Positions 4,029 through 46,714 of a stretch of 64,000 nucleotides of DNA are shown piece by piece. The stretch lies in contig KZ538319.1 in assembly GCA_000934665.2 (NCBI GenBank), positions 1 through 64,000 of the forward strand. The letters run 5' to 3'. Position numbers and translations under genes: made by a program. Position 1 is the first letter of the stretch. The number at the start of each line of letters is the position of its first letter. The notes beneath the pieces were generated by a model, which was not told the origin of the DNA, searched no databases, and saw only the letters and a program-made list of their open reading frames with translations. Source of the stretch: Catajapyx aquilonaris (lineage: Eukaryota).

Positions 4029-4289
4029 TTTATTATTATTATTTTATTTATTTATTGGAAGAATCAGCACTTAATTAGGGGGGATGGAGTACCACCATTG
4101 GCTGGGGCCAAGGATAGGGAATGAAGGAAGAGGCTGTGGCCTATTATACGGAAACAACCCCGGAATTATCCTGGGGGGCCCGTGGAAAACCACAGAAAAC
4201 CACGGTCAAGGTTGCTGGCCCTGGGATTCGAACCCAGGACCTCCCGATTAGCAGTCGGGCTCCTTAACCACCACACCAACCTGCTTCGG
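4029..4289 (-). mobile_element. tRNA-derived SINE
   Basis: TSD TTTATTCAAACATTTT (4013-4028 and 4290-4305), B-box GGTTCGAATCC on the minus strand, and an A-rich tail. It shares its body with the copy at 15217-15552. Confidence 0.85.
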
Positions 4290-4934: not shown

Positions 4935-7900
4935 TTACTTCTGCTCATAGTATCGCTTCTTCATGGTCCTGTACCTCCGCAGGTTGTACAGGGCCTCCAG
5001 CTCCTTTGCCACGTACTCTCCCTTTGCCAGCAATGACTCTATCTGCTTCGGGTCGCTCACGTCCTTGTTCTTGACAAATGCCATCTTCAACTTGTCGTGG
5101 AAATAGTCGTAACCCTTCGGGTAGTTGCGGCCAAGGTGCAACAGCTGAGCCGCAATTGTAAACGAGTTATGTGGGGTATTCTCAATTGCTGAACTGGCAA
5201 CATTGAACAACATCAAAATTACACATTGTGTCAAATTTTTGGGGAGGCAAAGAATTTCCGTAGGTTTTCATCCACATATTGGCTTGGCTAATAACAAATA
5301 AAGAGTTACCAGCTGGTTCAGTACTAGGGTTTATCTTGGGGACTTATGATGTGATTGTAACAATTGAAGGAGAGAAATTAAACAAGGCAAGCAAATTGGG
5401 AATAAATTGAAATCAGATTGGTTACCATGTTTTTAGTTTTCTCCCTCAATCATTGCACCCACAGACAGGACCCAGAGCTAATTTAATAATCTGGTGGGAA
5501 ATTGGGGTCATCTGGTGCGCATTGCTTACAAGAGAAAGAGAGGTGACATTCACTAACACCAGCACTATGTAATAAAATGTGGTCAATTCCTCTGTCATTT
5601 TCATCCTCAAGAACATAAAATATGACCTGGCCATCCACACCTTGACAATAATAATAATGCACCAATGGCACAAGCATCCAGTGTCGCCTTGCTTCTCAAC
5701 AGTACTGAGATCACAGTTATACATCTAATTCCAGACTGATTTAACCCATTTTCTCTAATTCTTCAGTGATGCAAACACTCTCATGCCAATGAGTGGTCTC
5801 AAAAACAAAAGCATATTCCAACTCATGCTGCGTATTTAGTACATGAACAGCAGCTGCAATTCCTAGTAATAATTGGTAACATGATGCAACCTCCCGACTG
5901 GCCTTGCAATTCCACTTTAACTGATACTGATGAGAATCAGAACTTCCCTATATTGGCATGAGCCACCGGAATTTAATTTGCTAGGCATTTTCCACTTCAA
6001 ACTACAGCCAATGAAGTCACATTAATTGGAACTCATCCACACATGATCATGCTTGCCTTCATGAACATGCATTAGTAGCCTGCAGTGTCCTTGGCCTCAT
6101 GTAATGAGTACTAAATACTACCTATTTTTAGACCCTCTGGACATAGACCCCATTGAACCCTGGGAGTCTGCTCAATTGTTATTTTTAAAGTATACTTTTG
6201 CCACCAGTGTACTAGCATTATCCTGATTTAAGTACGATTGCAATGACCTTTGATCAACATCTTGCCAAAGCATGGGGCTAATGATTTTCATCTGCCATTA
6301 ATGTGAGATAATTATAATATCCTTTTCATATTACCCCGACAGCACTACTTGCAGGTACTTACACATGGCATTTAAAAATTATAGGGTTTTTAATTATGCA
6401 CCAATTTCAAAAGTTTCAATCTAGACATTTCTGGGAGTATGTGAGCCCTGGAAGGAAATGCATTTTTCTCCTAAATATGGCTGGAGGGTTTGGGAGCTGC
6501 TAAATGGGTACATTAGTAGCAAGATAGCAAAATAAGTGGGAGTAAGTCTGGACTAAGAACCAATAGTTTCTGTTTCTTATATCCCTGCTGATTACAACTA
6601 CAGAGCACTTCATTTCCAAGACACATGACCTAGTTTAAATTATTTATTTTGATTAGTCACTTTGTAATTACACATTACTCAAAATTAATAGTTATGTAGT
6701 GCATGTAGCAAATGCTGTATGACCTAGTCCTGAGTTTCTGAACCTTTTTATCCTTGCGGAATCCTTGAAATAATGTTCATGTCTCAGGGAAGACCTACAT
6801 AAAAATTATTGCATGTCAATTAATGACTCAAAAATACATTTACATATGATTAGCCTCATAGACATTTTTAAAAAAACAAGAAAACCTGATAGGGCGGAGC
6901 CCTCTTAGCGGGGAAGGGGAGGTTCCCAAGGGAGGGCCCTGAATTTTTAGTCATTTCTGACTGTGAAATACACCAGACCTTTTCTGCTGGCCCCGGGCAG
7001 AGTAGGGAGTGCAATTCTGCCCCAGCATGTCGGGTGAAAAGCGGAAAAAGACCCGGCCAAGCAGAGATGACGGGGACGAGATTTGAACCCCGGCCTCCCG
7101 TTTGGCTGGCCAGTGGCATAACCACTGGACCACCATGCCTCCCCTGCCTCATAGACATTAAAGCTACCTTTAATATCTATGGATTAGCCTATTCATAGCT
7201 TTTTCTCATGGAACCCCTAGTGATGGCTCACGGAACCTGGTTGAGAAATTCTGCACGCGAGGGAAATCCAGACATTAACACCACAATCTTTGCAACTTGG
7301 CACATATTTTGTAATTGACACAAGTCACTTTGAGCATAAATATCATCTATTTTCTTCTCTGCTAATGACAGATGTCACACTTACAATCCAACCTGAATAT
7401 ATATGACATTCTAGATTGTACATGCCTCCATTGCCACAGAACATGCCAATAACAATAAGTTTACATTATTCTGTGTATTACATTTTATTTCATGAAAGCA
7501 CAAAAACATTATTCCTGTAGGTAGGAAAGAGAGGACATAATATGTGTAAGGCAAAAGGTTTTGAAGTAATCTCAAACCAGTTCACTGCCTTGACCCTAAC
7601 CTCTACCTTATCTACCACCTGATCTGAATTTGCACCCATTGACCTCTCATCCCTCCATCATTTATCAGTGAGAAATAATACAGCATACCATAGAAATCAA
7701 AACTTTCTAGTTGCATCAAAGAATTATTTAGGTCTTTTTGGTGTTATGTGGGCATGAGAAGAGAAACATGCAGCATGCTGTGTAAGAAGAATTATGTCAA
7801 TAGCAGCGAATGACATCATGCTGATGTCTGGGTATTAAAGGTTCTATTGTATTGCCTCTTTCTAAATATGAAACCATTATTTTAAAAATTGCAAACACAT

Positions 7901-10497: not shown

Positions 10498-11353
10498 GGA
10501 CCAAAAGCAGCAGACAAAGGTGAGGGGAAAAAAGGAAAACTTTCGAAGAAGGAGAAGGATGATATGAAGAAGCAAGAGGAAGAAGCAACCCGGTAAGGAT
10601 AGAATAATCAATGCACATGCTGGCCTCAGGTTTTCGGCGTTGCAAGTCTAGCCATTAAAATTATGATTATACTAACGATTTTAACTTCAGAATGATCAGT
10701 GTATGATTGCAAAAAAGCTGGTCAAATATATATATAGAAATATTTATGTAATAGGTTTGAGAATTTCCGCTGTGGAGTTTTCCAGGTAGGCTAGTTGATT
10801 TCAAATATACTTGCCAAAATATGCAAAAATCAATATGGAAGATCTAATTAATATTATGACAGATACGATCGTATGAATGTCGGGTTATTTGCTCCAATAT
10901 GCGTGCAACTTACAAGAGAGGAGTAAAGTCATTTGCCAAAGGCATTATTTTGACGCTTTGAGAACAGTAGCCCGGTTTCTCAAAAGCTAGTATTAATTAG
11001 CACTTTTCATTTACAAATGCGAAGTCATGTAAATGAGCAGCACAAGACTAGATTTAACAGCAAAATATTTTTGCCAGAAATTATATTAACTTACTGAAAT
11101 TTTTGAGACCCAAAATCAGGATCGTTCAAGACTATCACTCAATGTGGATAGTGCATATGGCAGTATTTACACTAAATTGATACCAAATGGGATGTGCATT
11201 ATTTCTATCTCCATAATTTAGAAAATTGTGCTGTAAAACGGTAATTTGACACAAATTATAGGCTGTGCTGGTTCTGAGTGCTCCGCCCCCAGGACACTGG
11301 GCATCGGGTGGGATTATGTGAAAGATCTATTTACTTCCAAGCAGGGACACCTC

Positions 11354-11425
<72 letters not shown>

Positions 11426-13043
11426 GTGTTTTAAAATGTACGGGATGTAAGTCCCTCATTGCGCCGATGCAATGAGGTAAAATAAATTAATTGATTAATT
11501 AATTATACATATATATGATGAAACGTCGCGACATGACAGTAGGCCTATAATATTAAAACGAATAGTCATAGAATGCAGGAAATAAAATAATATTATTGTT
11601 GGAAATAACTTTTGTTGCCATACTCAATTTGACAATTTATCAAAATAATATTGCCCATATAACGAACATATATTGCATCGAAGGATTTAGAATGCTAATC
11701 TTAATGAAACAAATTGTTTTTTCACAGAAACAATGTCGGAACTTGACCTTTAACTTGTTGTTGTTGTTGTTGTTGTTTTGATGCGTGGGACCAGGATTGG
11801 TTATGATAATTATTATTATCCGACTGTCCCCCATTGGTTGATCTGTGCACGTGCCTCAATATTGCGCATCATTCTAAAAGCCAGGGAGCCTTTCCAACTC
11901 AAACAAACAAACCAGTTATTTTGCAATCCGATCCACTCTGCAGTGGTATATTTGAAGAATTATCATTCAAATGATCCAGAGTCTCGCCCACCTTTTTTTT
12001 TGTTGTCCACCATTTCCACAATTAAGGTCAGCTAACGTACATTGCGAAGGAATAGGGCCTATTGGAGGTGTTCCAAGTCAACAAATCCTAATGTAGGGCC
12101 TACCACTTCCTGACTCTCCCTTGCATTATTATTACTACCCTGTACTGTATAAGGAAATAATTTTTAAATAAACAGTCTAACATAACACAGCATACAGGCA
12201 TACATATAGATTGATCAAATGGAAACGAAAATTGTGCCACATTTTTAACTCGCCGTTTGGGATGTAATTACATAATTACAATGCAATTTTAGCCAGAAAG
12301 TAGAACAAGAAGAGCATGCTAAGTTGGAGCAAGAACGTCAAACGAAGGAGGCTAAGATGGATCTGGAGATCGAGGAGCATCTAGTAAGGTGCGAAGAACT
12401 GCTTAAGACGATGAGAAAAAAACAACGAAACAAACTGGAGATTCGTCCCTATTTCAAGGAAATTAAGGCGGAAATCGAGGTAGGAATCTAACTTGATTCT
12501 TCAACCTGAAAAATCGACTGGATAGGCCTAATTTTCTGAGAATATGACTGGTGGTACTTTCACATGTTATTATTTTTGATTATCACTAAAGATAGTTGCA
12601 CAGTGTAGCAACGCATAAGTAGTAACTATGAGCTAAATAATTTATTATGAAACACGCGGAATATATGTCGATACTGGCCAAATATGTCATACACCTTTAA
12701 AGGCGAATTTTTGGATGCAAATCAATAATCATTATTAGGTTCAGGAAGCAATAAAATATTATTCACTTTCCCATGAAAGTCTCTAACCCTTCCAACACAG
12801 GCACTAAATTATACGGACATAATAACCCGAATTATAGTAACTGAGGGGGAAACATAATTTAGTTAATTATGAGGGAAGATAATTATAAATTATCTGGTGT
12901 TGGTTTCATTCGCGGGAACATCACCTGGCCATCACATTGCATGTGTATGCCCTTCATTGCATCATACAGTTCATCACATTCGCTTCAAGATGGATTTTAG
13001 TTGCTCAATCACGAAAAGTTTTAACCTGATTCTCCCTACCATA

Positions 13044-13106
<63 letters not shown>

Positions 13107-16100
13107 TTGAAAATTCCAGTGGGTTGAGGTCATCCTGTGCCAGAATCTTCCCTGCCCGCACAGACTTCCTGAGATGAATTGCTACATAAGCGTCTGGGAT
13201 GAAATGATAGTACTTCCGACCTTTAAAGTAATCCTCACGAAGACCCAGGAAGTTCTCAAAGTAAGAGACACATTGTACTCTACATATGCGCGCATGGTTA
13301 ATTTCTATAGGAGAGGGTGTTTCAGAACACTACCGACAAACTCTTAGGGTGACCTAGCGAAAGCCAGATGATCACCTGATAGTATATAGGGAGGCCATTT
13401 TTTGGTCTACGTTGTCCAATTACCAAAATAACGGGCTATTGATCAAATAGTATAGGATGTGCAAAGCGCAAGATAGTGCAATGTCCGTAATGGTACATTT
13501 TGTGAACTCCCCCGGGTGGATTAGTCTAGCGGAGATTCCACCCGAGACGAAGCCAAAGACGACCCAACTCTGCACGAGATGAAGGGGGAAGACCCCGCGC
13601 TGGGATCGAACCCGGGACCCTTCCATCCGTGGGTGCATACGTTGCCGCAGCGCCCAATCTTACAATAGAGACTCTAATCTATTATTATATGTAAATAATT
13701 CCGAAATGTTATAACGATATTCATCCAGGTCAAATTCTTAGAGCACGGTCTGGATCACAGGATTTACAGCTCATTAAAATTATTGCCAGATATTATTTTC
13801 ACTGCAAACTTTCAATAACACTACATAATTAACGAAGAGGCTTTTAATGGGTCATCCAACACTTTTAATCTGAAAATATTGTGTTGCCAAGTATACGAAT
13901 GCAATCTCAAATAAGGAACCGCAAACGTCGCAAGATAAAAGGTAGGATAGGAGGGTAAGCCCAAATGTTACGATGGATCATATGGAGGAGGATGTGGGTC
14001 AAAATGGTCAAAAATTAATCACGTAATTTATGGACGCCCCCATTATAGTTGCTTGAAACATGTATGCAAAATATAGGCTATATACACGCTCCTTCATCAA
14101 CCAGCACATCTGTACTGTTACAGCTTATGTCCATGCTAATCACGGAGATGGAAACGCCTGATAAAGGAATAACCTTCCAAGAGATAGAAAACATGACCGG
14201 TGTCTTCTTGAATATGGCAGCGATGCAGCAAACAATGATAGATCGTTGCACCTATATGATGCTGACCGGTGTGAGATTCCGAGTGGAGCAGGAGCACATG
14301 CTGATGAAGATCTACAGGTAATTGCATAATAGTAGAGCACCTGCACAAACTTTCTTGCTTCATGAAACTTTCAGTTTAGTACATGATTATTTACATTGTG
14401 GTAGTGTGAAACAGCTTTACTCCAAGAAATTTTGTGCGAACCTGAGTGTTCAAAGGAGTGTCTACGCGTACAGCATGAGTTTAAAAAATTATTGTGAAAT
14501 AATTTATTCCTCACTTCAGATCAGGCGCAGGTATGGCCATGGCCCTATGGTGCAATACGACCTTAACTCCTGAGCACTACACCTGTGTGATTCCTGAAAT
14601 GGGCTTCACTTTCATTCTGCCTGAGGCACTTCACGATCTTGATACAGGAGTTAGGATTATGCATCTCAGATATGATAACTTCTCAAGAACTACAAAATCT
14701 TTCTTTCCTCCTCCGCGGATCCATGAGCGATCATTAGGTATGGGTACAACGTGATTTTATTACTGAATATCCTTTAACCTTCATACAACTTCGTAATTAT
14801 TCCAGACTTCGCGGACTATGTGGGCCGGACTTGGGCTAGTGAATTCATGGTAGATGGGGAGGTAGATATTAACCAGGTCAAGCCAGAGGAGGAACCAAAG
14901 GAGCCAGAGGCAGAGCCAACGATGCAGGCGGTTGGTTTACAGCCAGTTTGTGAGTATAGATTTTTAAAAGAATATACATTTTCGCATGCTTATTACCTAC
15001 TGCAGTCTAACATGATACTAATAATGAAAGACAAGGGGGAGAAAGTGGTTCTGGCTTGAGATGAGAATGGCCACATCTGACTACCAGTACTGGTAAGTTG
15101 TAAATATGAATGCAACAATATCTGGATTATGTCCACGTCATGGTAGCATGAATGGATTCCTAAAAACCAGAGGACTGGTAATCCTTGGAGCTGGAAGACA
15201 GTTCAAGAGGCATACTTTTTTTTTGTTACACTCCGTGCTAGGGCCCTAGGCTCTTAGGGGAGTGGAATACCACCATCGGTGCAGGGGACAGGATAGGGGT
15301 CGTGTGCAGTCCCTCGGGGGGCCCGTTCGCCAAGATGACTCCCTGGATGTGGGTCAGAGACTCCCCACCGCCACCGCACCTCCTCATGGACGGGACAAGG
15401 ATAGGAAAGGAAGGGAGCTGCCGTGGCCTTATTTAGAAAGCAATCCCGGAATTCTCCTGGGGGAACCGTGGGAAACCACAGAAAACCACGGTCAGGGTTG
15501 CTGGCCCCGGGACTCGAACCCAGGACCTCCCGATTAGCAGTCGAACACCTTATCAAGAGGCATACTAATGGATACCTGAAGCATTTGGGAAGGGTTTCAA
15601 GAACGAAATTGGTATAGAAGAGAGAAGATAAACTCGGTAGTGATAGTAATGTCTATGTTGCCTATTGCACACAAGAAAAGTAGTATCAAAAATTCTTCTG
15701 ATACCTGATCAGTGCTTGATTAATGTAAAGGCTATTCAAAGCACAAGAGGTCTGACATTTGCATAACACCAGGATTTGAGTGTCTATCCTAACCCTTCTA
15801 CACCTAGCATCCAGAATGGCAAGGGCACCATCATAACCATCTGCGAATATTGAGTATGCATTGTCTGAAGTAAGGATACTAATAATGGTTGTTGGGCCAA
15901 CTCACCATTTTTTTTAATTGTACCCCGTTCTCGGACCTTGGGCCCTTATTGGGGGAGTGGGATACCCCCATTTGTTTGGAACCGTACACTGGATGTGTTT
16001 AGTTGTTCCAAGGGTAAGTAGGAGGGGATGTGCAACGTGCAAGTGCAATGTCGTATATTGGTCATTTTGTGAACTCCCCCGGGTGGATTAGTCTAGCGGA

Positions 16101-17989
16101 AATTTCCACCCGAGACGAAGCCAGAGATGGCCCAACTCTGCACGAGATGAAGGGGGGGAACCCCGGGCTGGGATCGAACCGTGGGCGCGTGCGTTACCGC
16201 AGCACCACTCCGTCTCCCCGCAACTAACAAATATTAACATCTAGTAACACCTTCTCCATCATTACTACCCATATCACTTCCTGTCCATACATCATTGACC
16301 TTTTACCAATTGTTCTTCCCTCACATAATCTCCGAAGTCAAGGGTAAACCAAAAGGAAAAGGAAAAGGCAGGAGAGGCAGTGGCAAAAGAGGATCTTTGC
16401 AATCTGATTCACTCTACATGGATATGGATGATGACGGAATCTCTGAGTTAGGGGAGACTGTTTACCCGGGGACATCCAGGACGTCGCCCTCCCAGAACTC
16501 TCTGTCTATGGAGAGAATCACTGACGGGCAGCAGAATGATTTCAAGAGGAAGAGCAGAAGAAGCAGTGCTGGTAGTGGAAAGAGCAGCTCATCTGGAACC
16601 ATAGGTACTAGAGGCAAGAAAAATAAGAAGACCAACAAGGGATTCCTAGAACCACTTATTGAGGAAGTGATTCCGGAGGAAATTGACTGTGCGTTATCTT
16701 TTATTTTTCACTTGTTTAATTCTACAAAAGAACAATGCTGGTAATTATTTCTTAGACAGTGTCGACAGTGACCTGCATTGATGATAAAAATTCCCTGTTC
16801 AATTTACAGGAAATGATCCCAAATTAAAGGGACTCTGTTGAGGGTGAAATACTAGAGAGAAGCATAGTCGTTCATAACTCTTTGAATATCCTGTTTCATC
16901 CCCACAGAAATGTTTTGTGAGATAATCTTTCCTTTCCCTGCAAATATTATGGCTTGTCTAGTCTTTCACATTCAATCTGCAGTGTATGAATTAGTAGTTG
17001 TGTTGTACTTGCAGTCGGCAACTGATTTTTATTTAGTGATTTAAACTTAACATTAACATAATACTCAAATTCCCATATACCGTGCACAGTGGAAAAGGTC
17101 AAGGAAAATCAGATTCGTGAGTCGCTCACATACCACTGTCGACCAGGAGAAGTCAACCTTCGTAAGTGTTCTATCCTAGCAGGAGTTCTGCAATTCGACA
17201 TGCTACATCTTCCTATCCAGCCGATTAGGTACCATCGTTGGGTATCACTTCAAGGTGAGTGTTCATTAGTAATATACAGGTACTGCACCAACAAGTCCCA
17301 GACTTCTTGATTATTTAAATGATCTTCTATATTCTGACCTCAAATTGATAGATCGAGAAATATGCCTAACTGATTAAGTGGAAAAAACTTAAATCGGAAC
17401 CCTTCAAACCCTATATGATTACCAAATTGATATAGTATACTCTCATAGCATATGGGTGCATAGAAATATTAAAAGCAAAAGTAGTTTAGGTTATGGAAGA
17501 GTTGAACTTGCAGCATTATGCTGGTGTAAAGAGGCCTGGTGGCAAAAAAAAACAAAAAATGGCGGAGTCCAGGGTACCTTCGACATGTTCACCTTATTGG
17601 AAGTAGCATATCATCATGCAACATAATGAAAAATGTATAGTGAGGCTATTCTTGAGTCAATATAGATTCAGGCGGCGTGTACTGTACGTTCCAGCCTCAA
17701 GAAAATGAGGTGCTCAAAGGCAAAAGCCAAAAAAATCTAACAGTTGCTTCTGAGTCATGTGAGAAAAATATATGACATCAAATTAATATACTGTACTAGC
17801 AATTGAAGAGGGGAAGCGGAGTGGCGCTGCCGTAACGCATGCGCCCACAGATGTAAGGGTCCCGGATTCGACCCCAAGGCCGGGCGCCTCCCGCCTCGCT
17901 AAAGGTTCCAGCTGTGTACAATAATTTGTACAACAAGTAAATAATAAAGGTCCATGAAATACCCCAAGTGGGGTCTAAGCACTACCCGG

Positions 17990-18063
<74 letters not shown>

Positions 18064-21000
18064 AAGCAGTTGAACAATAACAGATTTATGATTCGAATGA
18101 CTCATTACATATTTTATCATTTTCACTTCTCTATATGGTACTGTATAATGTATTGCACCACAGCATATTTTGTGGTTAGGATTCTTGTCCTTTCTTTTGT
18201 TGCCTACTATACTAATACTAAAGTACGAGGTTTTAAAGGCAATGATCCAATTGTTTCATTGGCAATATTTAGAATACAATAAGTACTATATCGCTGAATT
18301 CTGGATAACAATCGGCTGAGTATAGTGTCTGCCACTCTCCTGAAGGCTGATAAAATGAACGGGTTTCTCAATCACTTGTAATCCAAAAGATTTGGCAGAG
18401 ATAAGCTGCACTTATCACCATTCTAATCTGCGTTGTTTTCCAATAACAAATTGAAACTACGATTGCAACGAGTTGCTGATGTCACACGGCACTTCGATAG
18501 TGATATCACCTCTCATCCTCCCTCACCTTCATTTGTTCCACCTACAATTATGTGACAGTGCTCTGTACGATGTAAAGATGTGGGTGATCCGGTTGTGCAT
18601 TTTTTCAATTGCGGTGACTCTTATTGCATCTGAATCGTGGATGCTACGTGAAAACGAGGCATTAAATAGAGGAGAAGACTATTTTAGATTCAACCCAGAG
18701 ACATTGGCGGAACAACTGAGGACTACATGTCTCCAATGTTCCTTTCATCGCGCCGAAGTGAAGCATTGTGAACTACTTGACGGTTTGATTCTCAACTGCA
18801 GCCAGTCAAATTCCCAGTATCATGGTTCAAACCGTATCAGTGAGAAAATTCACAAAAATACTTTCAGTGACCAGAATGCGAAAGCCATAATAATAAGTGG
18901 CTTCCGATCGTTACACAGTCTGGATCCAGGAGCATTCAATGGAACAAGCCTCAAAGTTCTCTCACTGGCAGGGAATGGTCTCCAGGAGTTCCAGTATGAG
19001 GATTTCCGGGGACTGCCAAATCTGATCTCGCTTGATATTCACGACAACAACATTTCCCTCGGCCAACTAAAATGGACTAATAGCACAAATGAGACTGTGT
19101 TACCCAATCTCAAGTTTCTTGGACTTGGGGTAAATCCCCTCCAGGAGTTACCACCTGGATTTTTTTATCCGCTGAGAGAGAGTAAATTAGCAGAACTATG
19201 CCTTGGAAATGGGAACCTGGAGAGGATTAATCATGGTGAGTTCATAATTATTCAACCTACATTGTGAGTCATGATGTCCCTAAGTGTAGGGAAAGTGAAG
19301 CAAAATATTATTAATAATAATTCGTGGCTATTCCAAACGTGAAGGATGATTTAATTTAGCCTACTATTAGCAGCTATAGAAATATTCTTCCAAAGTACCT
19401 GCTTAAAAATAAACAGCTGAGGGACAAAATAGCCATGTAAAATGGACATCTCAATTGGAGCATGCTGCATACAGGGCGTTACGTAATAATGATGACAACA
19501 TTAACTAAGGTGAACTCCTGGGCACCAGAAGGTCACTTTATGTAGAGGTAGCATTTTGGTCTCGCAGCTTCGTTTTTACTGCGGTAATTAGCCTTATTAA
19601 AAGAGTGAATTACACACCATCTTGCACGCAGCAAACACATCCTGTGACACTCACATTCATTCGAGCACTACCTGCTACACCTAATGAGGCCGCAATTTAA
19701 ATTAATATTGATATTGCATCTCAACACCCAACTAAATTTAAATTCAAATATTCAAATATCTGCTACAATAGTTATTTTGTACCTTGTACTTGGTATTTGC
19801 AGCCAATATTGGCAGGCAATGAGTCTGTGGAGACGAAATGACATCTCTTCAAAAGGTGATCCTCTAGTCCACAAGAGTTCAGAATAGGGTATTTTTTGTT
19901 AACTGTTGTCCCCAAATATGGCTTGCGTGTACAGCCAAAAATATGAAGATAACCCGTACGTTGCAAGACGCCAATGAGTTAATCACTGGAAAATAAATTG
20001 GTGATATTTCTCTGCGCCAATGCACAAATATGTAGCAGCACACTGTACTGTACACCATGCCTTATATACTAATAGCCTGCTAATAGCGCATATTCACAAT
20101 ATTGAGAAAGTCACCAGTGGGTTTTTAGACAATTTGTGGGGGGGTGGGGGGTGGGGAGCATTCCAACAAAAGTCGTCATCTTAAATTTTTTGGCCACAAT
20201 TCCATTTCGGAAATATTCCACTAAAATGACATATATTGACTTTCTGCTCCTTTTTTATGCTCTTGTTGCCAAATACGTACCTAGTGTGTGCCCTGAAAAT
20301 CTCATTCATAGTAACTCATAACTGTTAATCTCCTCTTCCAGACACCTTTGCACCACTGAAGTACCTGGAGCACTTAGACCTGCGTGAGAATTCAAAGCTG
20401 ATTCCAAACCTGGACCCCATGATATTCCAGCATTTACGAAATGGCAATTTCCGATTTCTCGGATTATGCTTGAACAATATAGACAACACCACCAATGTTC
20501 AGCTGAAGACTATACTTAAGCCCATTGCAGACAATCTTGAGGTGCTCAACTTAGGTGACAACATATTTGACGAGCTCAGGCCAGATATGTTTCCAGAAAA
20601 AATGCCAAATTTAACAAAGATCCAGCTGGTCGGGTGTAAAATATCAAAGATTTGGACTACATTCTGGAATGCCTGTCCATCATTAGAATACGTCTTCCTT
20701 GGCCAGAACTACCTAATCAGTGTTCCAGATGCAAAATCCAGTCCAGTTAAATATTTGGACATGAGCTATAATGGGCCACCCCAAACAAGTCTAAATAAAA
20801 ATCCATTCACAATTCCCAAAGGGGCATTTAAGGACTTTACCCATCTAAAGTACTTGATATTAAGTAATACGTGGATCCAGACGATTGCCAAGGAGTCCTT
20901 CAGTGGGGCAAGAACAATTGAGTACTTGGATCTTAGTGGCACTAAACTTGAGGAAATACAAGCAGGTGCCTTCCACCACTTATCAAACCTCCACAACCTG

Positions 21001-24000
21001 CAGCTGCACCAAAATCCAAAGTTGAAGTACACACCTGGAATGTTTGATGGACTTTTGAACTTAATAAACATGTCACTGTCTGGATGTAACTTGGATTTCA
21101 ACATTGTAGATACTGCTGAAAACCATCGTGTGAATAATGGCTGGAATTCGAAGAGTGAGTTCTTTAATAACTGGAATGAGGATGAGTGGAATGTGGGTAG
21201 TGACCTGAATGATGATTGGAATATTGATTCCAGTAACACAAACGAGAACTGGAATGTTGATTACTATTACCAGAACGGAAAGGGTAGCAACTGGAATACA
21301 TGGGTTGCACAACCTGGAACCATACCATTTGAGGGGCTCCATAACTTAACCCATCTTAACCTGTCCAACAATGCCGTTGATGTTGTATATTCAAAATGGT
21401 TTGAGGGACTCACTGGCCTGCAGGTACTGGACCTCAGCAACAACCGACTCACATCATGGCATCATGAGGCATTTACTCACAATACAGCTTTACACACTCT
21501 CAACCTGACCAACAACCAGGTGGCACTCATATCTGACAGCATGATGCAGGAATTCAACCGCATCCGATATGTGCGCTTATGTGCCAACCCGCTGATATGT
21601 GATTGCAATTCACAGAAATTCTTCTCTGTCAAGAAGTGTCGCTGTGACGAATATGCGACTGAAGAGGTACGACATCCAAACTACTGTGTGAATATACAAA
21701 CAAAACAATATGTGTATACACTACAGGATTTAGAACAACTGAAACTGTGTGAGATGCCAGAGTCACCATTCTTGATTGCTGGTATGGTGATTCTCTCCAT
21801 TTCAATGATGGCTGTGTTCTCAATATGGGTGTATCGGACTAAACGGTGGTACGTGAAGTACTATGCTCTTGTTGCACGTCAGAGGTTTTGTCGTCCGCGA
21901 ACTTTGTCAACAAACGTACAAACATGCGATTATGACGCATTCTTGAGCTACAGTGATGGAGATCGTACATGGGTCTTTGAAGAGCTGGTACCACGCATGG
22001 AACAGGAAGAGTCGATACGTTTGTGTGTGCGTGAACGTGACTTTTCCCCAGGTGATTCTTTAACAGCGAATGTGGTTGGTGGAATTGATCGCAGTGCATC
22101 GGTCATCCTGGTTCTTTCTGACACTTATGTTGATGACCCCTGGCGCCTTTTTGAAGTTCAGGTCGCACACCACCGTTTGCTTGAGGGTCAGTTAGAAGGC
22201 ATAGTTGTAGTGTGCTTGGCAACTCTTCCAAATTCATGGAGACAAGCCGGGAGTAAAGTGCTCGCGTTTGTGGCTCGTACACAAGTGAAATTGAGATGGA
22301 CAGAACATCCTGAAGGCAAGAATGTGTTCTGGAAACAGCTGGGGAGAAGGGTCAGGGAAGTTGCAGCACCAGAAAGGGTCCTGCCAGTTGTGACTTGAAG
22401 TGGTCAGACACTTCCACCACTACAATGATAAATACTCTATTCTCTCTATGACTATAAATCACATCTCAAGTGATGCCTAAAAGTGTTGTAGTACCTACAT
22501 GGTCTTGCCTTACCTACCAGCTTCACTATTCATATCATAATTTAAGCGTGCCCTATGATAACTATAGCACATATGTTCCTTTCCTTACTGACCAACACAT
22601 CATCTAGCCAAACATTAGCATCATAATATTATTACAACGGCTGAGGTCGGTGACTTTTCTCCGGGTGGTAGAAAAGTGAGAGTGCGCCTTCCTTCGGAGG
22701 GGAAGTGAAGCCGTCGGTCCCGTGTGCTTGTGACATTGCACGAGTGCACGTTAAAGATCCCCAGAGTGGCCAAATTTCCAGGAGGAGGACCACCCCCAGG
22801 CGTCGGTGTTGAGCCTAGCGGCAGAAATAGGGAGACGTTAAGCCCCCACTGAAGTTCCTATAACCTGAACAGTACACCCTGATCATATTTTGTAGCATGA
22901 CTTCCCCACCATAATACTAAAGGATTCTTTGAGTATCTAAAGCGTAATTTATTATTACTGTGCACCACTGTTACAGACTCTGAAAGTAATAATGAGGTAT
23001 GACCTGCCTCACCTGGCATGATACAACTGCATATGTTTGACTCTTCCATACAATAGCATGAGTATGTAATCGGCATATATCAAAGTGACTACACTTTTCC
23101 CCGGCATGCCTTTACCAATCCCATCAAGTGTCCATTTTTCTCCCTTACTCACTCCCAACCAGACGCAGATGAACCGTGGCTGAAGTACGTAAAATTTGAG
23201 GCAGACTACAAGCCTCCACCCTCTGTAGATGCCCAACAGTCTCTTGGAGCTAGAAAGGATCCTGAGGAACTAGAAAAAGAAATGAAGGCTCAAGAGGAGG
23301 AGCTTCTCAAGCTTATAGCTGTTCATATCAGGTAAGCAATAACCTTTTAGTTATTGCAAATTTCGCCCGAAGTTGTTATTTTTGTGTAGCTTTTTTTTTT
23401 CTCCGATCGAGGTGCTCAATTATTCCCACATTGATTATATCACCAGCTGCTATATTCGACCACACCTGAGAATAATAATATGTATCATAATTTAGCTTGC
23501 AGCAGTATCGGCTAAAATGTTGCGGACTGTTGCATCAAGTTGGTATTCCTGAGCGCGTCATTTTAATTGGTCAGAGCGTGGGTCACAAGAACCGAACACG
23601 CATCTTTCCTGCGCAGTCCCTCGGTAATTCTCTGATTTTCCTCCCTTCCAGGATGCCAACAGGACTTGTGTGCGTTAGTGACATTTATGCCGATACGGGC
23701 AGAAGCTAAATTATGAAACACAAGGTTTATATGGATTTAATAATATACATTTTTGTGTGCCTATTCACTTTTACAAAAAAATAGCTTGCCAAAGTACATC
23801 TTGTGGTTCGAGCCTCCAACCATCTGCCGTTGGAATGAAGAGGAAAAAATGTGGGATACATCCTGTTTCTATGACTACAAGTACAATGAGGAGACAATGC
23901 TCTTGTCTGTCAAATCCACTCAATTTGGAAGCTATGGCCTGATACAGAACCGATTTTTGAACCTGCCCTACCAGAGCTGGGAGATGAGGCCAGATCAAGA

Positions 24001-25699
24001 TGGGGTATCTGTTATTTTCTCCCTAATGGCGGCAATTATTGGGTTCGAATTTCAGTTCAAGGTACAAGTGAATTTCTATAAGTTCGATAAGTAACTTTCC
24101 TCACACGAAATGGAGGGAAAAGCCTAGTATTTAAGTCCAACTCAGGACCATTTTATCCATCTGCACATCCTGTTGCACTGTCATTCTTCTTCCCCAGTAT
24201 ATCATGTTTACATCATTTTAGGATTGAAAGTGCCTTATTGCTTGCAGAGTGTTCATAGTAACATATTTAAAAAGCAGTGTTGCATAATACAGGGCGTTCC
24301 AAGTGCGTGGGTAGTTTTTAGTTATCAGTGATATCACCCGAAGTAGTTATTTTTGTGTAACTTGTTGTGTCCCGATCCAGGTGCCCCATTACTACCAGGT
24401 CAGGGAGCATATACTACATAAGATGCGCAAACATTCGATTTTTGCGTCTCTCTGTTTGGGGCGTTGCCAAGGCTGGCGGCCATTTTGAAGTTTGTGGAAC
24501 GCCAACGAGGTATAAATAGGGTACAGGCAAAAATAAGGTCTGCCATCTTTGATTCGCGCGTGTTCTTGCCTTTCTTGCCATGCAGTTGCCATGGCTGCCA
24601 AAACCATCAAAGATGGCGGACCCTATTTTTTCCTGTACCCTATTTATACCTCGTTGGCGTTCCACACACTTAAAAATGGCCGCCAGCCTTGGCAACGCCC
24701 CAAACAGAGAGACGCGAACATCAAAGGCGCCGACAGAAGTTTGCGCCTCTTTATGTAGTATATGCTCCCTGACCAGGTGGTGTAACCTGGCTCAGTGCAC
24801 ACCAAGATACAAAAAAAAACACCTTCGAGCGAATTTCCTGTAACTAAAAGGCCCCATGAACTTGGAACACACTGTATTATAGTATAGACAGCCCAGAAAT
24901 GGGACGTAATGTGTCTCTTTTCTACAGGATGACTTAATCAAAATCAGAGACATGCAAGGAGCTCCAGGGGATGCACTTGACAGCTTGATTGGAGTGTATA
25001 TGACATATCCACAGTTAAAGAAGGTAAGTGAAGTTACACACATTAGTCAACTTTGACTTACTTAACGAAGTCCTTAACATAGCTTACTACATATAAAATC
25101 TACTTTGTAACATCTTCTCCCATTAGGTGTTCCAAAGAGCTGGACTGGACCTGTTCCCAGACTTTGACTCATATTGCTATGTGGAAGGAGTGACCACAAA
25201 GCATGAGCCATCTGAGTTACATCTGTATGACTGCATGGCAATGGTCTGTAAGGCAATGAACCTTAGTTCCAGCCGCTGGAACATGTTCGCTGGTCCGAAG
25301 AAGATGGTCATGCAATACAGGGAGAAAATTCCCCACGTACACCCTCTCAATTACAGGATGGTTGTTGTTACACCAAAGCGGTGTGTCAGTGTCACTTGCT
25401 CAGAGGTCAGCCCTGCATACTCGGAGACTCCTGTAACTCATGGAGTGAGTATTGCTCTAATTTGTTTGCTGCAACTTGATAGTAAGACATATTGTATGAT
25501 TGGATAATGTTGAAATACTCATATCACATCTCAATATTTTCTCGCTTATCAGGATATAGACTACAGTGGAGACTTTTTCAATTTCTGTATGACATCGGCC
25601 ACGCTAGCAGGGAAGGCGGTGATGAAGAAAACACCCAGAATCTTGATATACAACATGGCGCAGTTCCTCCGAGGGATCAAACTTCTCTCATACTCGTAA
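10498..25699 (+). CDS. DNAI7: Dynein axonemal intermediate chain 7 (CASC1/Las1), about 834 aa; the exon carrying the start codon lies upstream and is unresolved
   Basis: Phase-consistent exons: 10498-10592 (GPKAADK...), 12293-12479, 13120-13260 (W...C...P...EMNCYISVW), 14124-14317, 14520-14737, 14806-14949, 16338-16688, 17090-17254, 23163(or 23169)-23331, 23785-24061 (LWFEPP...RW...NLPYQSWEMRP), 24928-25023, 25127-25444 (AGLDLFP...SRWN), 25553-25699 (ends KLLSYS*). The GPKA N-terminus and LLSYS C-terminus match CASC1 as I recall it. Confidence 0.88.
13045..13106. repeat. (GAT)n microsatellite ending just before a DNAI7 acceptor
   Basis: Seen directly; the exon starts at 13120. Confidence 0.95.
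13478..13655 (-). mobile_element. tRNA-derived SINE, second family
   Basis: Shares the core TTTTGTGAACTCCCCGGGTGGATTAGTCT...CCCAACTCTGCACG with copies at about 15950-16220 and 49779-50102 (the latter has TSD AAATGACAT). B-box GGTTCGATCCC on the minus strand. Confidence 0.75.
15217..15552 (-). mobile_element. tRNA-derived SINE, 5'-truncated
   Basis: TSD TCAAGAGGCATACT (15203-15216 and 15553-15566), poly-A tail and B-box GGTTCGAGTCC. Confidence 0.85.
18578..22398 (+). CDS. Toll-like receptor (signal peptide, LRRs, single LRRCT, TM, TIR), 904 aa, nested in a DNAI7 intron
   Basis: Exon 18578-19235 (MWVIRLCIFSIAVTLIA signal peptide plus LRRs, donor GTGAGT) joins exon 20342-22398 in phase 1. It has many LxxLxLxxNxL repeats, LRRCT NPLICDC, TM FLIAGMVILSISMMAVFSIWVY, and TIR boxes YDAFLSY, LCVRERDFSPG and FWKQL. 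Confidence 0.95.
22645..22850 (+). mobile_element. SINE fragment with a Nin/Deu-domain-like core
   Basis: GGAAGTGAAGCCGTCGGTCCC...GCACGTTAAAGATCCCCAG...AAATTTCC...GACGTTAAGCCCC resembles, from memory, the Nin/Deu core of arthropod SINEs. Confidence 0.5.
24290..24874. mobile_element. Tc1/mariner-type MITE interrupted by a second fold-back MITE (24401-24771)
   Basis: Outer TIRs are TA-CAGGGCGTTCCAAG / CTTGGAACACACTG-TA. The inner palindromic element CAGGGAGCATATACTAC...GTAGTATATGCTCCCTG has a 7-bp TSD ACCAGGT. Confidence 0.8.
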
Positions 25700-25935
25700 A
25701 AAAATAACAACAAAAAATGTGGTTGTTGTGTGTTTTCATGCATGAAGTGCATCCGGAGGAGTCAGTCAGAAGATGCCCATCATATAACAATGGTCCTCAG
25801 CTGTACAAAATGGTTCAGTGAACCGATAAATTCTGACCATATTTGCCCGCATTATTTGTTTTAGTGCTTACGTGTTATTTTTGGTAAGAATGTGCAAAAT
25901 CCCACAATAGGACCTAAAGGTCTATTTTCATATCC

Positions 25936-26071
25936 GCGAATAGTCGAAAAATCGCGGCGAATTTGGCTTTTCACGCGCGTGCGAATCGCAAGGGGTGTTT
26001 TCATTTATTGTTGGCAACAATAAATGAAAACACCCCTTGCGATTCGCACGCGCGATTTTTCGACTATTCGC
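25936..26071. repeat. Fold-back palindrome with perfect 40-bp arms and a 1-nt loop
   Basis: 25974-26013 is the exact reverse complement of 26015-26054. Outer arms are GCGAATAGTCGAAAAATCGCG and its complement. Confidence 0.9.
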
Positions 26072-30115: not shown

Positions 30116-30200
30116 NNNNNNNNNNNNNNNNNNNNNNNNNNNNNNNNNNNNNNNNNNNNNNNNNNNNNNNNNNNNNNNNNNNNNNNNNNNNNNNNNNNNN
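30116..30200. other. Assembly gap (N run) flanked by poly-C
   Basis: Seen directly. Single Ns also occur inside several G/C homopolymers. Confidence 0.99.
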
Positions 30201-35556: not shown

Positions 35557-37672
35557 ATAGGTACATTATGATGAGTTACTGAACGCAAGCGTCCACTGTC
35601 CAGTATTGTGGACGTACCATATTATGAAGTCCTCAACACAATCAGGGAATAAGGTATTATCATTATCAGTTAATATCAAGAGCCATATACACGTGTCACA
35701 TGCAACAGCCGACCATTGCATTGTCATATGACATGCATCATAAAATCCTCACAAACTGACGCAATACATGGCGGTACACACTATATTGGGGGAAAGGGGG
35801 AAAGAGCAGTGGATTACTCGCTGCAGTGACTTTGTGACTCACCATGTGAATGCCTCAGTGGTCATAGAGGAAGTCCTCGTTATAAGCAGGGTTACGTTCC
35901 CGAAAATCGTTGCATATAAAGGCACATGGCGGAGTGGTTCCCCATAAGACCCATAAGGTGCGGTACGCCGGGGTGCCTTCGATTCTGAAACGCTGTCTAC
36001 AAGAATTTATAACCGAAAAGGCAAAGTTGAAGATTTTTGTCTGATCTAAGCGTCCGTAGCCAGTCATTCAAGGTGGCTGCCATGAACAAGGGTGGTCGGT
36101 GTGCGTTCATGTGGAAGAAGGGTAGTGTACCAAGGCTTCGTCCGCCGGATGAAACGTGATGAGCAAGCACCTTGCACACAAAAAATTTGTGTACATACAG
36201 GGTGGATGAGTCGTCTGAGGATCGACCCTAATCGAGCCATACCAGCGTGTCCTCCAGTCATGACTGGGTGTTTTCTGTCTGTCCTTCACTCCCCAGTCAC
36301 TGTTACAAGAACGCAGGAACCTGCATATTAATTATTAATTTTTTATCGACTTATCCGTCAATGAAGGCATGACTTAAATGAGAAAATATGGATGTCACAT
36401 CCTCACCGTCGATTTGCATAACCAATCACTCTATTACGGACAGCACCATTGGACGGATCATCCGGACACAACGTAATGGTTGTCAAGATGGTCGAATTCT
36501 GTTGACACAGCTATGGAACCGTTCTCATTACAACCAGCGGACAGGGCGTTATAACACTGGACAAAACGTTAGAAACTGTGTACAGTACGGTGTTTTAATC
36601 CTGCAATATATGCCTATACTCTACTGTACAGTCACTGTACCACAACTCCGTTAGACCCTGCTAAAACTGTGTGGTATGAAGTGGCGAAGCCTTATTGACA
36701 AAATTCATGCGAAAGAGTAATGGGACACGTTCAGTGCAGCGTGGAACATAAAGGACATCCGTATCGGCGGAAATGTCCCGGAAGCTCGGCCTTATATTGC
36801 CTACCCTTCTGGTTTGGCATGGCAGTGTGTTTCAATGGGATGTCGGTAGTGGTCAGCGAATTATTCACATTTCTAGTTTAGTTTTATCGGTTACTTTGAT
36901 GGTGTTTTTTTACGAGCTTTCAAAAATTTAACTGCTGTTATTAGGTTGAATTGTGATATTATTTTAGGCCCTGCATTGCTATTTTATCAGTAGCAGGAAT
37001 ATGAAATGACCCACTGTCATTTGATGTCAATTGTTGAACACCATTTTACAGCATACCTCGTCTACTTTCCTGAAGTAGTTTAAAAAGGACACAGTTGCAC
37101 CCATTATTACCAGCTAATATTGTTGAGACCAGCTAAAAGTAGCTGTTCCAAAGTAACTGCTTTAAATTATTAGTAATTATCAGTAAAAATACATGACAGT
37201 GGTCTTAAACTTTTTTCCTGTTGCATGGCCCTTTCGCCATATTCTTTGCAAGGACCATGTAAAACAATATAATGATACCGGTACAGTACCATATCACAGG
37301 GCTGTGAGGCTATATGCTGGGCCAGCCCCCGCCCAGATCAAATTTAACTTAATTAGTACCATATCATGAATACCCAATAACAGCATGGGACTGTCCTACA
37401 ATTTAACACATGCATGTGGCCACAGTTCCAGTTTATACATTGCTGACATGATAATAATGGACCCAACAAGAACTCCACATATTAATATTGGACCAATAAA
37501 CTCATTATTACCCCAAATATCCTCGGGAACCCTTTGGTCAGGCCTACAGAATGCTGTAGTCTGCGGGATACCAGTTTAATACTGTACCACTGATGTACTG
37601 TACACCATGCCATTAAGAATGTCATGCACCACTCTGACCTCCACGTTTCTTTTCCCAGTGTGAAGGCGAAGA

Positions 37673-38908
37673 ATGGGCTGTGTGGCAAGCAAGGCAGACT
37701 TGAACGACCGCCACCCAAACATATTCCAGGTGATGAACATTGACTGTCATGGCAGAGGACACATGCCAGGACAGTTGGAGATCACAGAGTCGGAGCTGGT
37801 GCTACACCAGCGCGGGCGTGAGGTCACCCGCTGGCCTCTACGATCCCTGAGGTGCTATGGATTTGATGCCGAAAAGTTCACTTTTGAGTCGGGGAGAAGG
37901 TGTCCAACAGGGCATGGTATATATTCCTTCCAGTGCCGGAGGGCAGAGCAAGTTTTTAACCTTCTGCAGGTAATGACTGTTGTCTTAATTTGATGTAAGA
38001 TTAGTTGCATAGAATTATCTATTATCTGCACACAAGAACACAAGATTATTAATAACAATTTGCTTGTGTGCCTCCCAACTCTTTTTCCCAATACATACTG
38101 TAAGACTAATTAGACATGCAAATGGCCTCGCCTACAGTAATCTTATGCTTCTAGATGACTCAGTGAGTTTGACTACCAGCATGTAAAGAGGAAGGTGTGG
38201 CATTTCTACTTTCAGGGCTACATCCAGATGCGCAATGATGATGCCACCTCCCGCGATTCCTTTGCCCAGCCATCTATTCCAAATAACAACAACAACGGCT
38301 ACCTTGAACCCTTGTCAGGACGTATTCCCAATGGCAGGGGCTCACTATCTTTACCTGGCAATGTTCGTGGCCCTATCAGTCCCACCACATCCCTCCCTGC
38401 CTCATACTATGCCAATGAGGATGTCTTTGATACTGACCCCAATGAACGAGCTGTAGATTCCCGGGTCACCAATGGTGACCTCCGCCCCTCCTACGCCAAC
38501 CTCACCCCATTCGAACCATTACCAGAAGAAGATCAGTCGCACTTGTACGTCAATGTGATGCCAGAAGCCTCAAAGGCACATTGTTATGCCAACTGTGATG
38601 CTGCTGACACTGAGGTTCAAGTGCGACAGGTCAATTACATCCTGCTGGACCTTGACCATGGGTCAGATTCAAATAACTCGCAGACCCTTCCAACAACCTC
38701 ACCAGCTGGATCAGTACCTGGATCAGGTCCAAGCTCTCCCCGAAGAGCTTCAGAAGGGTATGTGACTATCGACTTTGACAAGACAGCTGCACTGTCCAAC
38801 TCAGCATGCCCTAGTGTGGATCATGATGAGGGGTGCCGCAAAACAAGGCATAATTCTGCCATGAATGACCTCATGTTCAGCAGAAACAATTCGTCCATGA
38901 GTGACTGA
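37673..38908 (+). CDS. FRS2: Fibroblast growth factor receptor substrate 2/3-like adaptor, 329 aa
   Basis: Exon 37673-37969 has an MGC myristoylation start and an IRS-type PTB domain (WPLRSLRCYG...FTFESGRRCPTGHGIYSF). Exon 38216-38908 joins in phase 0 and carries YxN Grb2 motifs (YANE, YANL, YVNV, YANC), SHP2-type VNYILLDL and YVTIDF, and the FRS2-like tail RKTRHNS. Confidence 0.9.

Positions 38909-46656: not shown

Positions 46657-46714
<58 letters not shown>

Follow-up and report, generated by a model that had tools for sequence, protein, structure and literature searches.

Nested genes make up about one tenth of the genes in flies and mammals. In the sections of the published surveys on which we draw here, 71.3% of nested genes in Drosophila lie on the strand opposite to that of the host and about 29% on the same strand (PMC3814207, PMC5174743), and only a slight orientation bias is reported for mouse and human, where the two orientations are "broadly similar" (PMC11694760). 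The general statement of the first-pass annotation that most nested genes are antisense to their hosts thus holds for Drosophila but is weakened by the slight bias in mouse and human. In the same sources, nested genes sit in long introns, both in Drosophila (PMC3814207) and in mammals (PMC11694760). Same-strand, intron-containing nested genes are a known class, and table 1 of PMC3814207 lists 50 host genes that include such genes; of the same-strand nested genes of flies, 72.5% have only one exon, and mis-splicing is a recognized cost of same-strand nesting (PMC3814207, PMC5174743). A vertebrate example, as described in the part of the report used here, is OMP, a gene that occupies intron 2 of CAPN5 and shares the strand of its host; ORNs are reported to express OMP but do not express CAPN5, and the arrangement has been kept from Fugu to human (PMC6549253). 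Same-strand pairs with reciprocal expression have been described already. Judged by title and the start of the abstract, no paper found in our literature search concerned a nested Toll-like receptor (TLR) gene, and by the same measure no nested gene appeared among the listed matches on DNAI7/CASC1/LYRM5.

Here, we describe a TLR gene that lies within an intron of the axonemal dynein gene DNAI7, on the same strand. The window (the whole stretch of DNA that was analyzed) is 64 kb long. We established the anatomy of the locus, the open frames of both genes, and the identities of both. The reading that we consider probable is that of a same-strand nested gene pair whose members would be transcribed separately, with the host skipping the TLR.

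The DNAI7 gene and the intron at 17255-23162

DNAI7 is the IC97/CASC1 intermediate chain of the inner-arm dynein I1/f. We identified its relatives through a PDB search and Pfam. Our model of the host chains 13 exons on the + strand into 815 codons, in which the sole stop is the terminal one (TAA, 25697-25699). The upstream coding exons as modeled are 10498-10592, 12293-12479, 13120-13260 (Casc1_N), 14124-14268, 14525-14737, 14806-14949, and 16338-16688. They are followed by the exon at 17090-17254, which was placed by tblastn with DNAI7 relatives and ends in the phase 1 donor AAG/GTGAGT (slashes mark exon boundaries); this donor fits 9 of 9 consensus positions. The exon on the far side of the intron (23163-23331, also placed by tblastn) begins at the phase 1 acceptor CAACCAG/AC, and an alternative AG just after it would start the exon at 23169. 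The remaining coding exons, 23785-24061, 24928-25023, 25127-25444, and 25553-25699, contain the Casc1_C domain. The exons flanking the intron encode ...GEVNLRK... upstream and ...KYVKFEADYKPPP... downstream.

The identity of the host is supported by both domains and structures. Casc1_N was found at 13111-13344 (29.9 bits against a cutoff of 28.2) and Casc1_C at 25127-25504 (39.3 bits against 26.2), so that the two domains flank the TLR, one per side; a further Casc1_C match at 23744-24091 scored 26.0 bits, slightly below the 26.2 cutoff. The exon at 23786-24061 matches the solved DNAI7 chain 8j07_k3 (7.2e-12), the exon at 25127-25444 matches the solved DNAI7 chain 9fqr_Hn (1.3e-07), and the relative P0123 matches both solved chains at about 1e-60. 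A word-based search for longer relatives of the exon at 25127-25504 gave 219 candidates, none of which scored.

The intron that holds the whole TLR coding region (18578-22398) is 5,908 nt long and is the longest of the 12 modeled DNAI7 introns, the runner-up having 1,700 nt. By tblastn, 5 of 10 full-length DNAI7 relatives matched both flanking exons in ascending order; P0123, for example, aligned through residues 343-369 at 17143-17223 and then through residues 389-435 at 23189-23332. The two Casc1_C exons farther downstream were matched by all 10. Between the flanking-exon matches, 11 to 34 residues were absent, roughly the number (about 19) for which the unaligned exon ends code. Thus, the intron conceals no further exon of the host. 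This collinearity bears out the earlier placement of the TLR between DNAI7 exons ending at 17254 and starting at 23163 in the same orientation. The DNAI7 frame continues open from one side of the intron to the other, so that host transcripts that encode the full-length protein must remove the entire TLR as an intron, which upholds the first-pass claim that they splice over the TLR exons.

We asked whether the nesting could be an artifact of assembly that joined a TLR locus into DNAI7. There are Ns elsewhere in the window (29004, 30116-30200, and others). However, no N lies within 5.8 kb of the intron, there is no break in composition, and the TLR sits cleanly between splice sites in an intron that would otherwise be about 2 kb, an ordinary size. 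An assembly artifact is therefore very improbable.

A second alternative is that one partner is non-functional: either DNAI7 is decaying after its interruption, or the TLR is a silent, recent, still undamaged copy. For DNAI7, this alternative draws on our failure to locate the exon with the initiator ATG and on two middle exons, 14806-14949 and 16338-16688, which are the least certain of the model. Against it, all of the homology-supported exons are open, their splice sites are usable, and their phases match; the gene also retains the conserved C terminus ...LLSYS. DNAI7 thus looks intact, and taken over both partners, with the TLR evidence given below, we regard this alternative as unlikely.

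Upstream of DNAI7, on the opposite strand, lies a LYR-motif gene; the mouse Casc1-Lyrm5 arrangement offers a comparable neighbor, according to the part of PMC3990522 that we cite. A neighboring sulfotransferase exon was closest to those of arthropods (61% to Daphnia magna). Rfam and ARAGORN searches detected only a tRNA-Ser, far upstream.

Structure, identity, and possible origin of the TLR gene

The TLR gene has two coding exons on the + strand. Exon 1 (18578-19235) encodes the signal peptide, the N-terminal cysteine cluster, and the first leucine-rich repeats (LRRs). It opens with an ATG at 18578 (A at -3, G at +4), has 219 codons plus 1 base, and ends at the phase 1 donor ATCATG/GTGAGT. A 1,106-nt GT-AG intron of phase 1 follows (19236-20341). 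Exon 2 (20342-22398) begins at the acceptor CTCTTCCAG/AC and encodes further LRRs, the C-terminal cysteine cluster, the transmembrane helix, and the TIR domain before the stop (TGA, 22396-22398). The joined frame is 2,715 nt, or 904 codons plus the stop (904 amino acids). It has no internal stop, which confirms the complete two-exon open reading frame (ORF) reported at 18578-22398.

The encoded protein has the features of a TLR. Pfam LRR_8 was found in the ORFs of exon 1 (3.8e-12) and exon 2 (7.6e-43), and the exon 2 ORF also contains TIR (PF01582, 4.6e-16; TIR_2, 1.1e-14). A hydropathy scan places a signal peptide in the hydrophobic residues 1-19, after Arg5. The only other hydrophobic peak is the transmembrane segment at residues 694-717, which is also a helix in the AlphaFold2 model. 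The ectodomain contains about 19 LxxLxLxxN-type motifs, with cysteines at 51, 54, 64, and 74 and a second group at 633-689. YDAFLSY at 750, RDFSPG at 785, and FW at 882 are what we take to be TIR boxes 1 to 3. The best solved relative of the exon 2 product is TLR3 (3.1e-41). AlphaFold2 modeled this product with a mean pLDDT of 80.3, as a confident LRR solenoid and TIR domain, and the top Foldseek matches of the model were TLR5, TLR13, and TLR3. A Trp/Asn/Asp-rich stretch of the ectodomain (21100-21294, + strand, residues 253-317 of the exon 2 product) had a pLDDT below 50.

The sequence itself is very divergent, and we do not claim orthology with any named TLR. Among the 120 of 491 matches listed, the closest protein was 26% identical along most of the TLR, and the best named ones were TLR13 and TLR22 of Branchiostoma; the listed TLR matches point to deuterostome TLR13, TLR22, and TLR3, at 22 to 26%. 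With no listed relative above 26%, purifying selection is not measurable, which leaves some room for the TLR as the non-functional partner. However, 2,715 nt are open with all of the signature motifs in place, and 26% identity to the nearest listed relative marks an old and divergent gene rather than a fresh copy. A metagenome scan with the exon 2 product yielded 40 candidate stretches, of which 1 passed; this LRR match, at 27% on a contig of 1.5 kb, has no bearing on the nested locus.

We suggest that a fast-evolving single-cysteine-cluster TLR, own intron included, was placed in an ordinary DNAI7 intron through a DNA-level duplication or insertion, and that DNAI7 would have stayed intact after its arrival. 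As traces of an insertion, no direct repeats of at least 16 nt were found in the intron at 17255-23162, which has only four inverted pairs of 16 to 18 nt, and the window contains no second copy of the TLR. The intron has a single repeat in common with other parts of the window, 62 nt in length (17823-17884 versus 13654-13593, 82%).

Transcript ends and splicing across the locus

Wherever DNAI7 is expressed, RNA polymerase would read across the entire TLR gene, and the TLR exons would then be lost with the 5.9-kb intron as the spliceosome joins 17254 to 23163. The TLR is presumably transcribed separately from a promoter of its own, with a start between about 17.3 and 18.56 kb. A possible 3' splice site lies 19 nt 5' of the TLR ATG (18559-18577, + strand), where a pyrimidine-rich stretch at 18510-18545 is followed by GACAG/T; if used, this acceptor would imply an upstream non-coding TLR exon. 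A one-codon ATG-TAA start-stop lies at 18571-18576, upstream of the TLR ATG. Splicing of the host donor to 18559 meets an immediate stop. Thus, the TLR is not efficiently translatable from host transcripts in this way and needs its own start. Our motif scans of 17255-18577 found no TATA box, no kappaB-like site, Inr-like TCATTT at 18119 and 18531 (both without a DPE), and three GATA motifs at about 18348-18412; such motifs are too short to carry meaning.

The 3' end of the TLR was examined on the + strand. The first-pass annotation had listed only variant poly(A) hexamers after the TLR stop, and we found the same: GATAAA at 22427, TATAAA at 22453, and ACTAAA at 22916, with no AATAAA or ATTAAA in the 764 nt at 22399-23162. 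The window has 78 + strand AWTAAA sites, which gives 0.93 expected per 764 nt and a Poisson chance of about 0.39 of finding none. The missing canonical hexamer is therefore within chance. DNAI7's own 3' end likewise lacks AATAAA and ATTAAA for 320 nt, and the TLR intron contains AATAAA at 19408 and 19992 and ATTAAA at 19596. By general rules for poly(A) motifs, a plausible TLR signal is the TATAAA at 22453-22458, 55 nt past the TLR stop, with the GU-rich stretch GTGTTGTAGT at 22483-22492, 25 nt after the TATAAA. The TLR transcript would probably end at this weak, non-canonical signal and its GU-rich element, giving a 3' untranslated region of about 80 nt. Another candidate signal is the GATAAA at 22427.

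Exclusive expression of the two genes, which the first-pass annotation offered as one possibility, would not remove the splicing conflict, because host pre-mRNA carries the TLR splice sites regardless of whether the TLR promoter fires. The acceptor of TLR exon 2 is strong and its phase is that of the host intron, and host transcripts could well use it. Three features would favor skipping by the host: the poly(A) signal is weak, the terminal exon exceeds 2 kb, and the host donor is perfect.

A further alternative is that DNAI7 and the TLR are one transcription unit or routinely produce chimeras, either by splicing 17254 to 20342 and ending after the TLR or by reading through the TLR and splicing 19235 to 23163. 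The products would be the N-terminal half of DNAI7 joined to the TLR or the N terminus of the TLR joined to the C-terminal half of DNAI7. The two introns share phase 1 and interrupt an identical codon, G/AC, so that all cross-splices between host and TLR are in frame; the 17254-to-20342 joint (1,165 codons) and the 19235-to-23163 joint (554 codons) are open to their natural stops. In addition, the longest + strand gap in the window without AATAAA or ATTAAA runs from 21069 to 26018 and ends only past the DNAI7 stop, as TLR read-through to the host 3' end would also predict. However, we estimate that the phase match has a one-in-three chance of arising by itself, and a hexamer-free gap of such length appeared in 20 of 300 random sequences. 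The TATAAA and GU-rich element just past the TLR stop also argue against a single unit, and a DNAI7-TLR fusion would be without a signal peptide. LRR or TIR domains were found in none of the protein models of 25 DNAI7 relatives, and by this measure, which concerns proteins and not loci, fused models gave no sign of nesting elsewhere. We therefore consider this alternative unlikely.

A stronger form of this idea, in which the locus yields regulated in-frame chimeras or TLR read-through throttles DNAI7 output, is a long shot. The chimeras could be a secreted N-terminal TLR fragment fused to the C-terminal half of DNAI7 or the N-terminal half of DNAI7 fused to the transmembrane-TIR part of the TLR. 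If this were true, a single locus would couple a subunit of ciliary dynein to a receptor of innate immunity.

Comparison with known nested genes

The locus, on our favored reading of two separately transcribed genes, is a genuine nested gene of an ordinary kind and opens no new question. It is a clean case of the less common nesting, on the same strand and with an intron within the inner gene, and it offers a usable test case for how a host skips an internal acceptor that is strong and a poly(A) site that is weak. The in-frame cross-splices are an annotation risk, since the open 1,165-codon fused model is a trap for gene predictors, and they carry a small chance of real chimeras. The divergent TLR with its odd Trp/Asn-rich segment may interest those who study the diversity of invertebrate TLRs.

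Each partner resembles its known counterparts. As in known DNAI7/CASC1/IC97 genes, Casc1_N and Casc1_C lie in one collinear gene; the host here differs in its lineage-specific low-complexity exon at 16338-16688. The TLR shares its architecture, from signal peptide through TIR, with the vertebrate-type single-cysteine-cluster receptors TLR3, TLR13, and TLR22. However, it is only 22 to 26% identical to this kind over most of the length, and where those relatives have regular repeats it has the 65-residue Trp/Asn/Asp-rich low-confidence segment.

The pair as a whole also has precedents, insofar as the sections of the reports cited here describe them. Like same-strand nested genes of Drosophila (Lee and Chang 2013; Assis 2016), the TLR occupies the longest intron of its host, and it is likewise a fast-evolving gene within an older, conserved one; among those fly genes, it would belong to the intron-bearing minority. 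OMP/CAPN5 is a precedent in that a protein-coding gene lies in one host intron on the same strand, as the TLR does in DNAI7. OMP is single-exon, whereas the TLR has an intron of its own whose splice sites match the phase of the host.

A divergent Toll-like receptor gene in a DNAI7 intron

A two-exon Toll-like receptor (TLR) gene had been described in the first-pass annotation as nested, on the same strand, inside an intron of the axonemal dynein gene DNAI7. We confirmed every coordinate of the TLR reading frame and of the flanking DNAI7 exons. The nested feature is real, was correctly described, and is of a known kind. The window has a G+C content of about 42% and is eukaryotic DNA. On the forward strand, TLR exon 1 runs from an ATG at 18578 to 19235, where it ends in a GT donor (ATCATG/GTGAGT), and exon 2 runs from a strong acceptor at 20342 (CTCCTCTTCCAG/AC) to a TGA stop at 22396-98. 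Together the two exons form a frame of 2715 nt (904 codons plus the stop).

Pfam detected LRR_8 in the first open reading frame (3.8e-12) and LRR_8 (7.6e-43), TIR (4.6e-16), and TIR_2 (1.1e-14) in the second. Hydropathy and motif scans showed a stretch resembling a signal peptide (residues 1-19), cysteines 51, 54, 64, and 74, about 19 LRR motifs, a further cluster of cysteines (633-689), a single transmembrane peak (694-717), and the TIR box motifs YDAFLSY (750), RDFSPG (785), and FW (882). The protein is of the single-cysteine-cluster kind. In full-length TLR relatives, the alignment with exon 2 begins at about residue 200-300, which leaves space for the 219 residues that exon 1 encodes. The TLR gene is complete.

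An AlphaFold2 model of the exon-2 product (mean pLDDT, 80.3) combined a solenoid of LRRs with a helix and a TIR-like domain, with TLR5, TLR13, and TLR3 as the best fold matches. TLR3 was also the best solved sequence relative (3.1e-41, over the last repeats, membrane helix, and TIR domain), and the ESM Atlas placed the product among TLR clusters. A search of 5.8 billion clustered proteins gave 491 hits. Among the 120 of these that were listed, identity was at most 34%, with the top values covering only about one-fifth of the query; the best named hit was Branchiostoma belcheri TLR13 (26% identity over 73% of the query), and the matches leaned, at low identity, to deuterostome TLRs. By these comparisons the TLR is very divergent. 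A metagenome scan gave no relevant match.

A stretch rich in Trp, Asn, and Asp, in which WN motifs recur (21100-21294, forward strand; residues 472-536), occupies the place of regular leucine-rich repeats in 15 aligned TLR relatives. Its pLDDT is below 50, and we therefore read it as a likely disordered loop in the middle of the ectodomain, in a position reminiscent of the Z-loop of TLR7-9. No DNA-level tandem repeat underlies it.

The DNAI7 host and its surroundings

A Pfam scan of 102 of the 106 listed open reading frames left 98 without a hit; it identified Casc1_N at 13111-13344 and Casc1_C at 23744-24091 and 25127-25504, all on the forward strand. An exhaustive HMMER search with the last of these frames returned 134 relatives, ten of which, all full length, were searched against the window by tblastn. 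All ten matched both Casc1_C exons, and five (P0122, P0123, P0128, P0140, and P0145) matched both the exon that ends at 17254 and the one that starts at 23163; the other five matched one or neither of these short exons at the thresholds used. In all five relatives matching both exons, the order across 17254/23163 was ascending. The two matches were separated by 11 to 34 unaligned residues, close to the number (about 19) that the unaligned exon ends account for, so the intron conceals no further host exon. We consider it very unlikely that the arrangement is a misassembly. Against the DNAI7 chains of solved axonemes, P0123 scored about 1e-60 and the window's own exons scored 7.2e-12 and 1.3e-07.

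Taking splice sites from the sequence, we built a 13-exon DNAI7 chain of 815 codons that stays open as far as the TAA at 25697-99 and has the C-terminus usual for the family. The ATG-bearing exon was not found in this model, and the exons at 14806-14949 and 16338-16688 are its least certain. Both frames considered, loss of function in one partner, whether the TLR or DNAI7, seems unlikely. The large exon at 16338-16688 (forward strand) is of low complexity, rich in Lys, Gly, and Ser, and has no counterpart in relatives; with an alternative donor at 16343, almost the whole exon would be skipped without a change of frame. The TLR-bearing intron (17255-23162) is 5908 nt long, versus 68 to 1700 nt for the other eleven, and retains no repeat signature of insertion. 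None of 25 DNAI7 relatives had LRR or TIR domains, which weakly suggests that the nesting may be lineage specific. Another DNAI7 intron holds a near-perfect foldback at 24391-24781 (120-nt arms, 93% complementary, 52 nt apart) flanked by an additional 31-nt pair. The structure has the appearance of a MITE or foldback element.

On the opposite strand, upstream of DNAI7, sits the terminal exon of a gene for a LYR-motif protein (4938-5267; Complex1_LYR, 5.3e-09), probably the ETFRF1/LYRM5 orthologue. This echoes the Casc1-Lyrm5 neighborhood of the mouse (PMC3990522). A tRNA-Ser(GCT) gene (4213-4284, reverse strand; Rfam and ARAGORN) adjoins that exon. Upstream of the TLR are an (ATT)24 microsatellite (17990-18062) and a 62-nt piece (17823-17884) with an inverted 82% copy at 13593-13654; the piece is tRNA-like by eye and was called by neither Rfam nor ARAGORN. 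Elsewhere we found an IRS-type PTB domain exon (37664-37990, forward; 2.2e-17), two exons of a cytosolic sulfotransferase (46265-49047, reverse; 1.2e-24 and 2.4e-30), one of them closest to arthropod proteins (best identity 61%, Daphnia magna), and, at 62339-62788 (reverse), the autoregulatory DAD motif of a formin.

Splicing and transcript ends

The TLR intron (19235/20342) and the host intron (17254/23163) are both in phase 1, and each interrupts a GAC codon after its first base (G/AC). Thus, all cross-splices are in frame: host exons spliced to TLR exon 2 give an open frame of 1165 codons, and TLR exon 1 spliced to the downstream host exons gives one of 554. Gene predictors may output such fused models. 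As an account of the locus, chimeric or coupled transcription of the two genes nevertheless strikes us as improbable. A pyrimidine-rich tract and an AG found 19 nt upstream of the TLR ATG may serve as an acceptor, at 18559. Host transcripts spliced there would reach a TAA after five codons, so the TLR would not be made efficiently from host transcripts and would need its own start. Just past this site, two bases before the TLR ATG, is a one-codon start-stop (ATG TAA, 18571-18576, forward strand), likely within the TLR 5' UTR.

The first-pass annotation had proposed mutually exclusive expression or regulated splicing and termination. Exclusive expression guards against polymerase interference but not against the strong acceptor at 20342, because host pre-mRNA carries that acceptor whatever the TLR promoter does. 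This acceptor is the real conflict. Under exon definition and U1-dependent suppression of intronic poly(A) sites, its skipping could plausibly be aided by the length of the terminal exon (above 2 kb), by the weakness of the poly(A) signal, and by the perfect consensus host donor at 17254 (AAG/GTGAGT).

As had been reported, AATAAA and ATTAAA are absent from the forward strand between the TLR stop and 23162, where GATAAA (22427), TATAAA (22453), and ACTAAA (22916) occur. This absence carries little weight, for four reasons. With 78 forward-strand sites in the window, 0.93 is expected in 764 nt, and by our own estimate the Poisson chance of none is about 0.39. The whole-window count (164) resembles that of shuffles (167 ± 13). 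Canonical hexamers occur elsewhere on the forward strand of the host intron, three of them inside the TLR intron (19408, 19596, and 19992), so that the host intron evidently tolerates such sites. After its own stop, DNAI7 lacks canonical hexamers for 320 nt and has only AATAAC beside a GU-rich run. The TATAAA at 22453, followed 25 nt on by GTGTTGTAGT, is a reasonable if weak candidate poly(A) signal by the usual rules for cleavage sites. We consider it probable that the TLR and DNAI7 would be transcribed as two independent units, with the host discarding the TLR as part of its intron and the TLR transcript ending at this weak signal just after its stop.

The first-pass annotation had overlooked the longest forward-strand stretch in the window free of both hexamers (21069-26018, 4956 nt), which starts inside TLR exon 2 and ends 320 nt beyond the DNAI7 stop; its minus strand has four such sites. 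Since 20 of 300 first-order Markov simulations reached a gap as long, it is suggestive at most.

Comparison with known nested genes

A literature search found no paper on a nested TLR, judged by title or the start of the abstract. The view that most nested genes are antisense to their host holds in Drosophila, where 71.3% are on the opposite strand (PMC3814207, PMC5174743). In mouse and human, the frequencies of the two orientations are "broadly similar," and long introns house nested genes (PMC11694760). The Drosophila sources also state that nested structures include nearly 10% of genes, that single-exon genes make up 72.5% of those nested on the same strand, with a median of one intron among the multi-exon remainder, that introns with nested genes have a median length of 4826 nt versus 138 nt, and that mis-splicing is the proposed cost (PMC3814207, PMC5174743). 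OMP, in intron 2 of CAPN5, forms a same-strand pair with reciprocal expression (PMC6549253). The TLR/DNAI7 pair fits this picture point for point: the inner gene evolves fast, has one intron, and lies in the longest intron of a host that is old and conserved.
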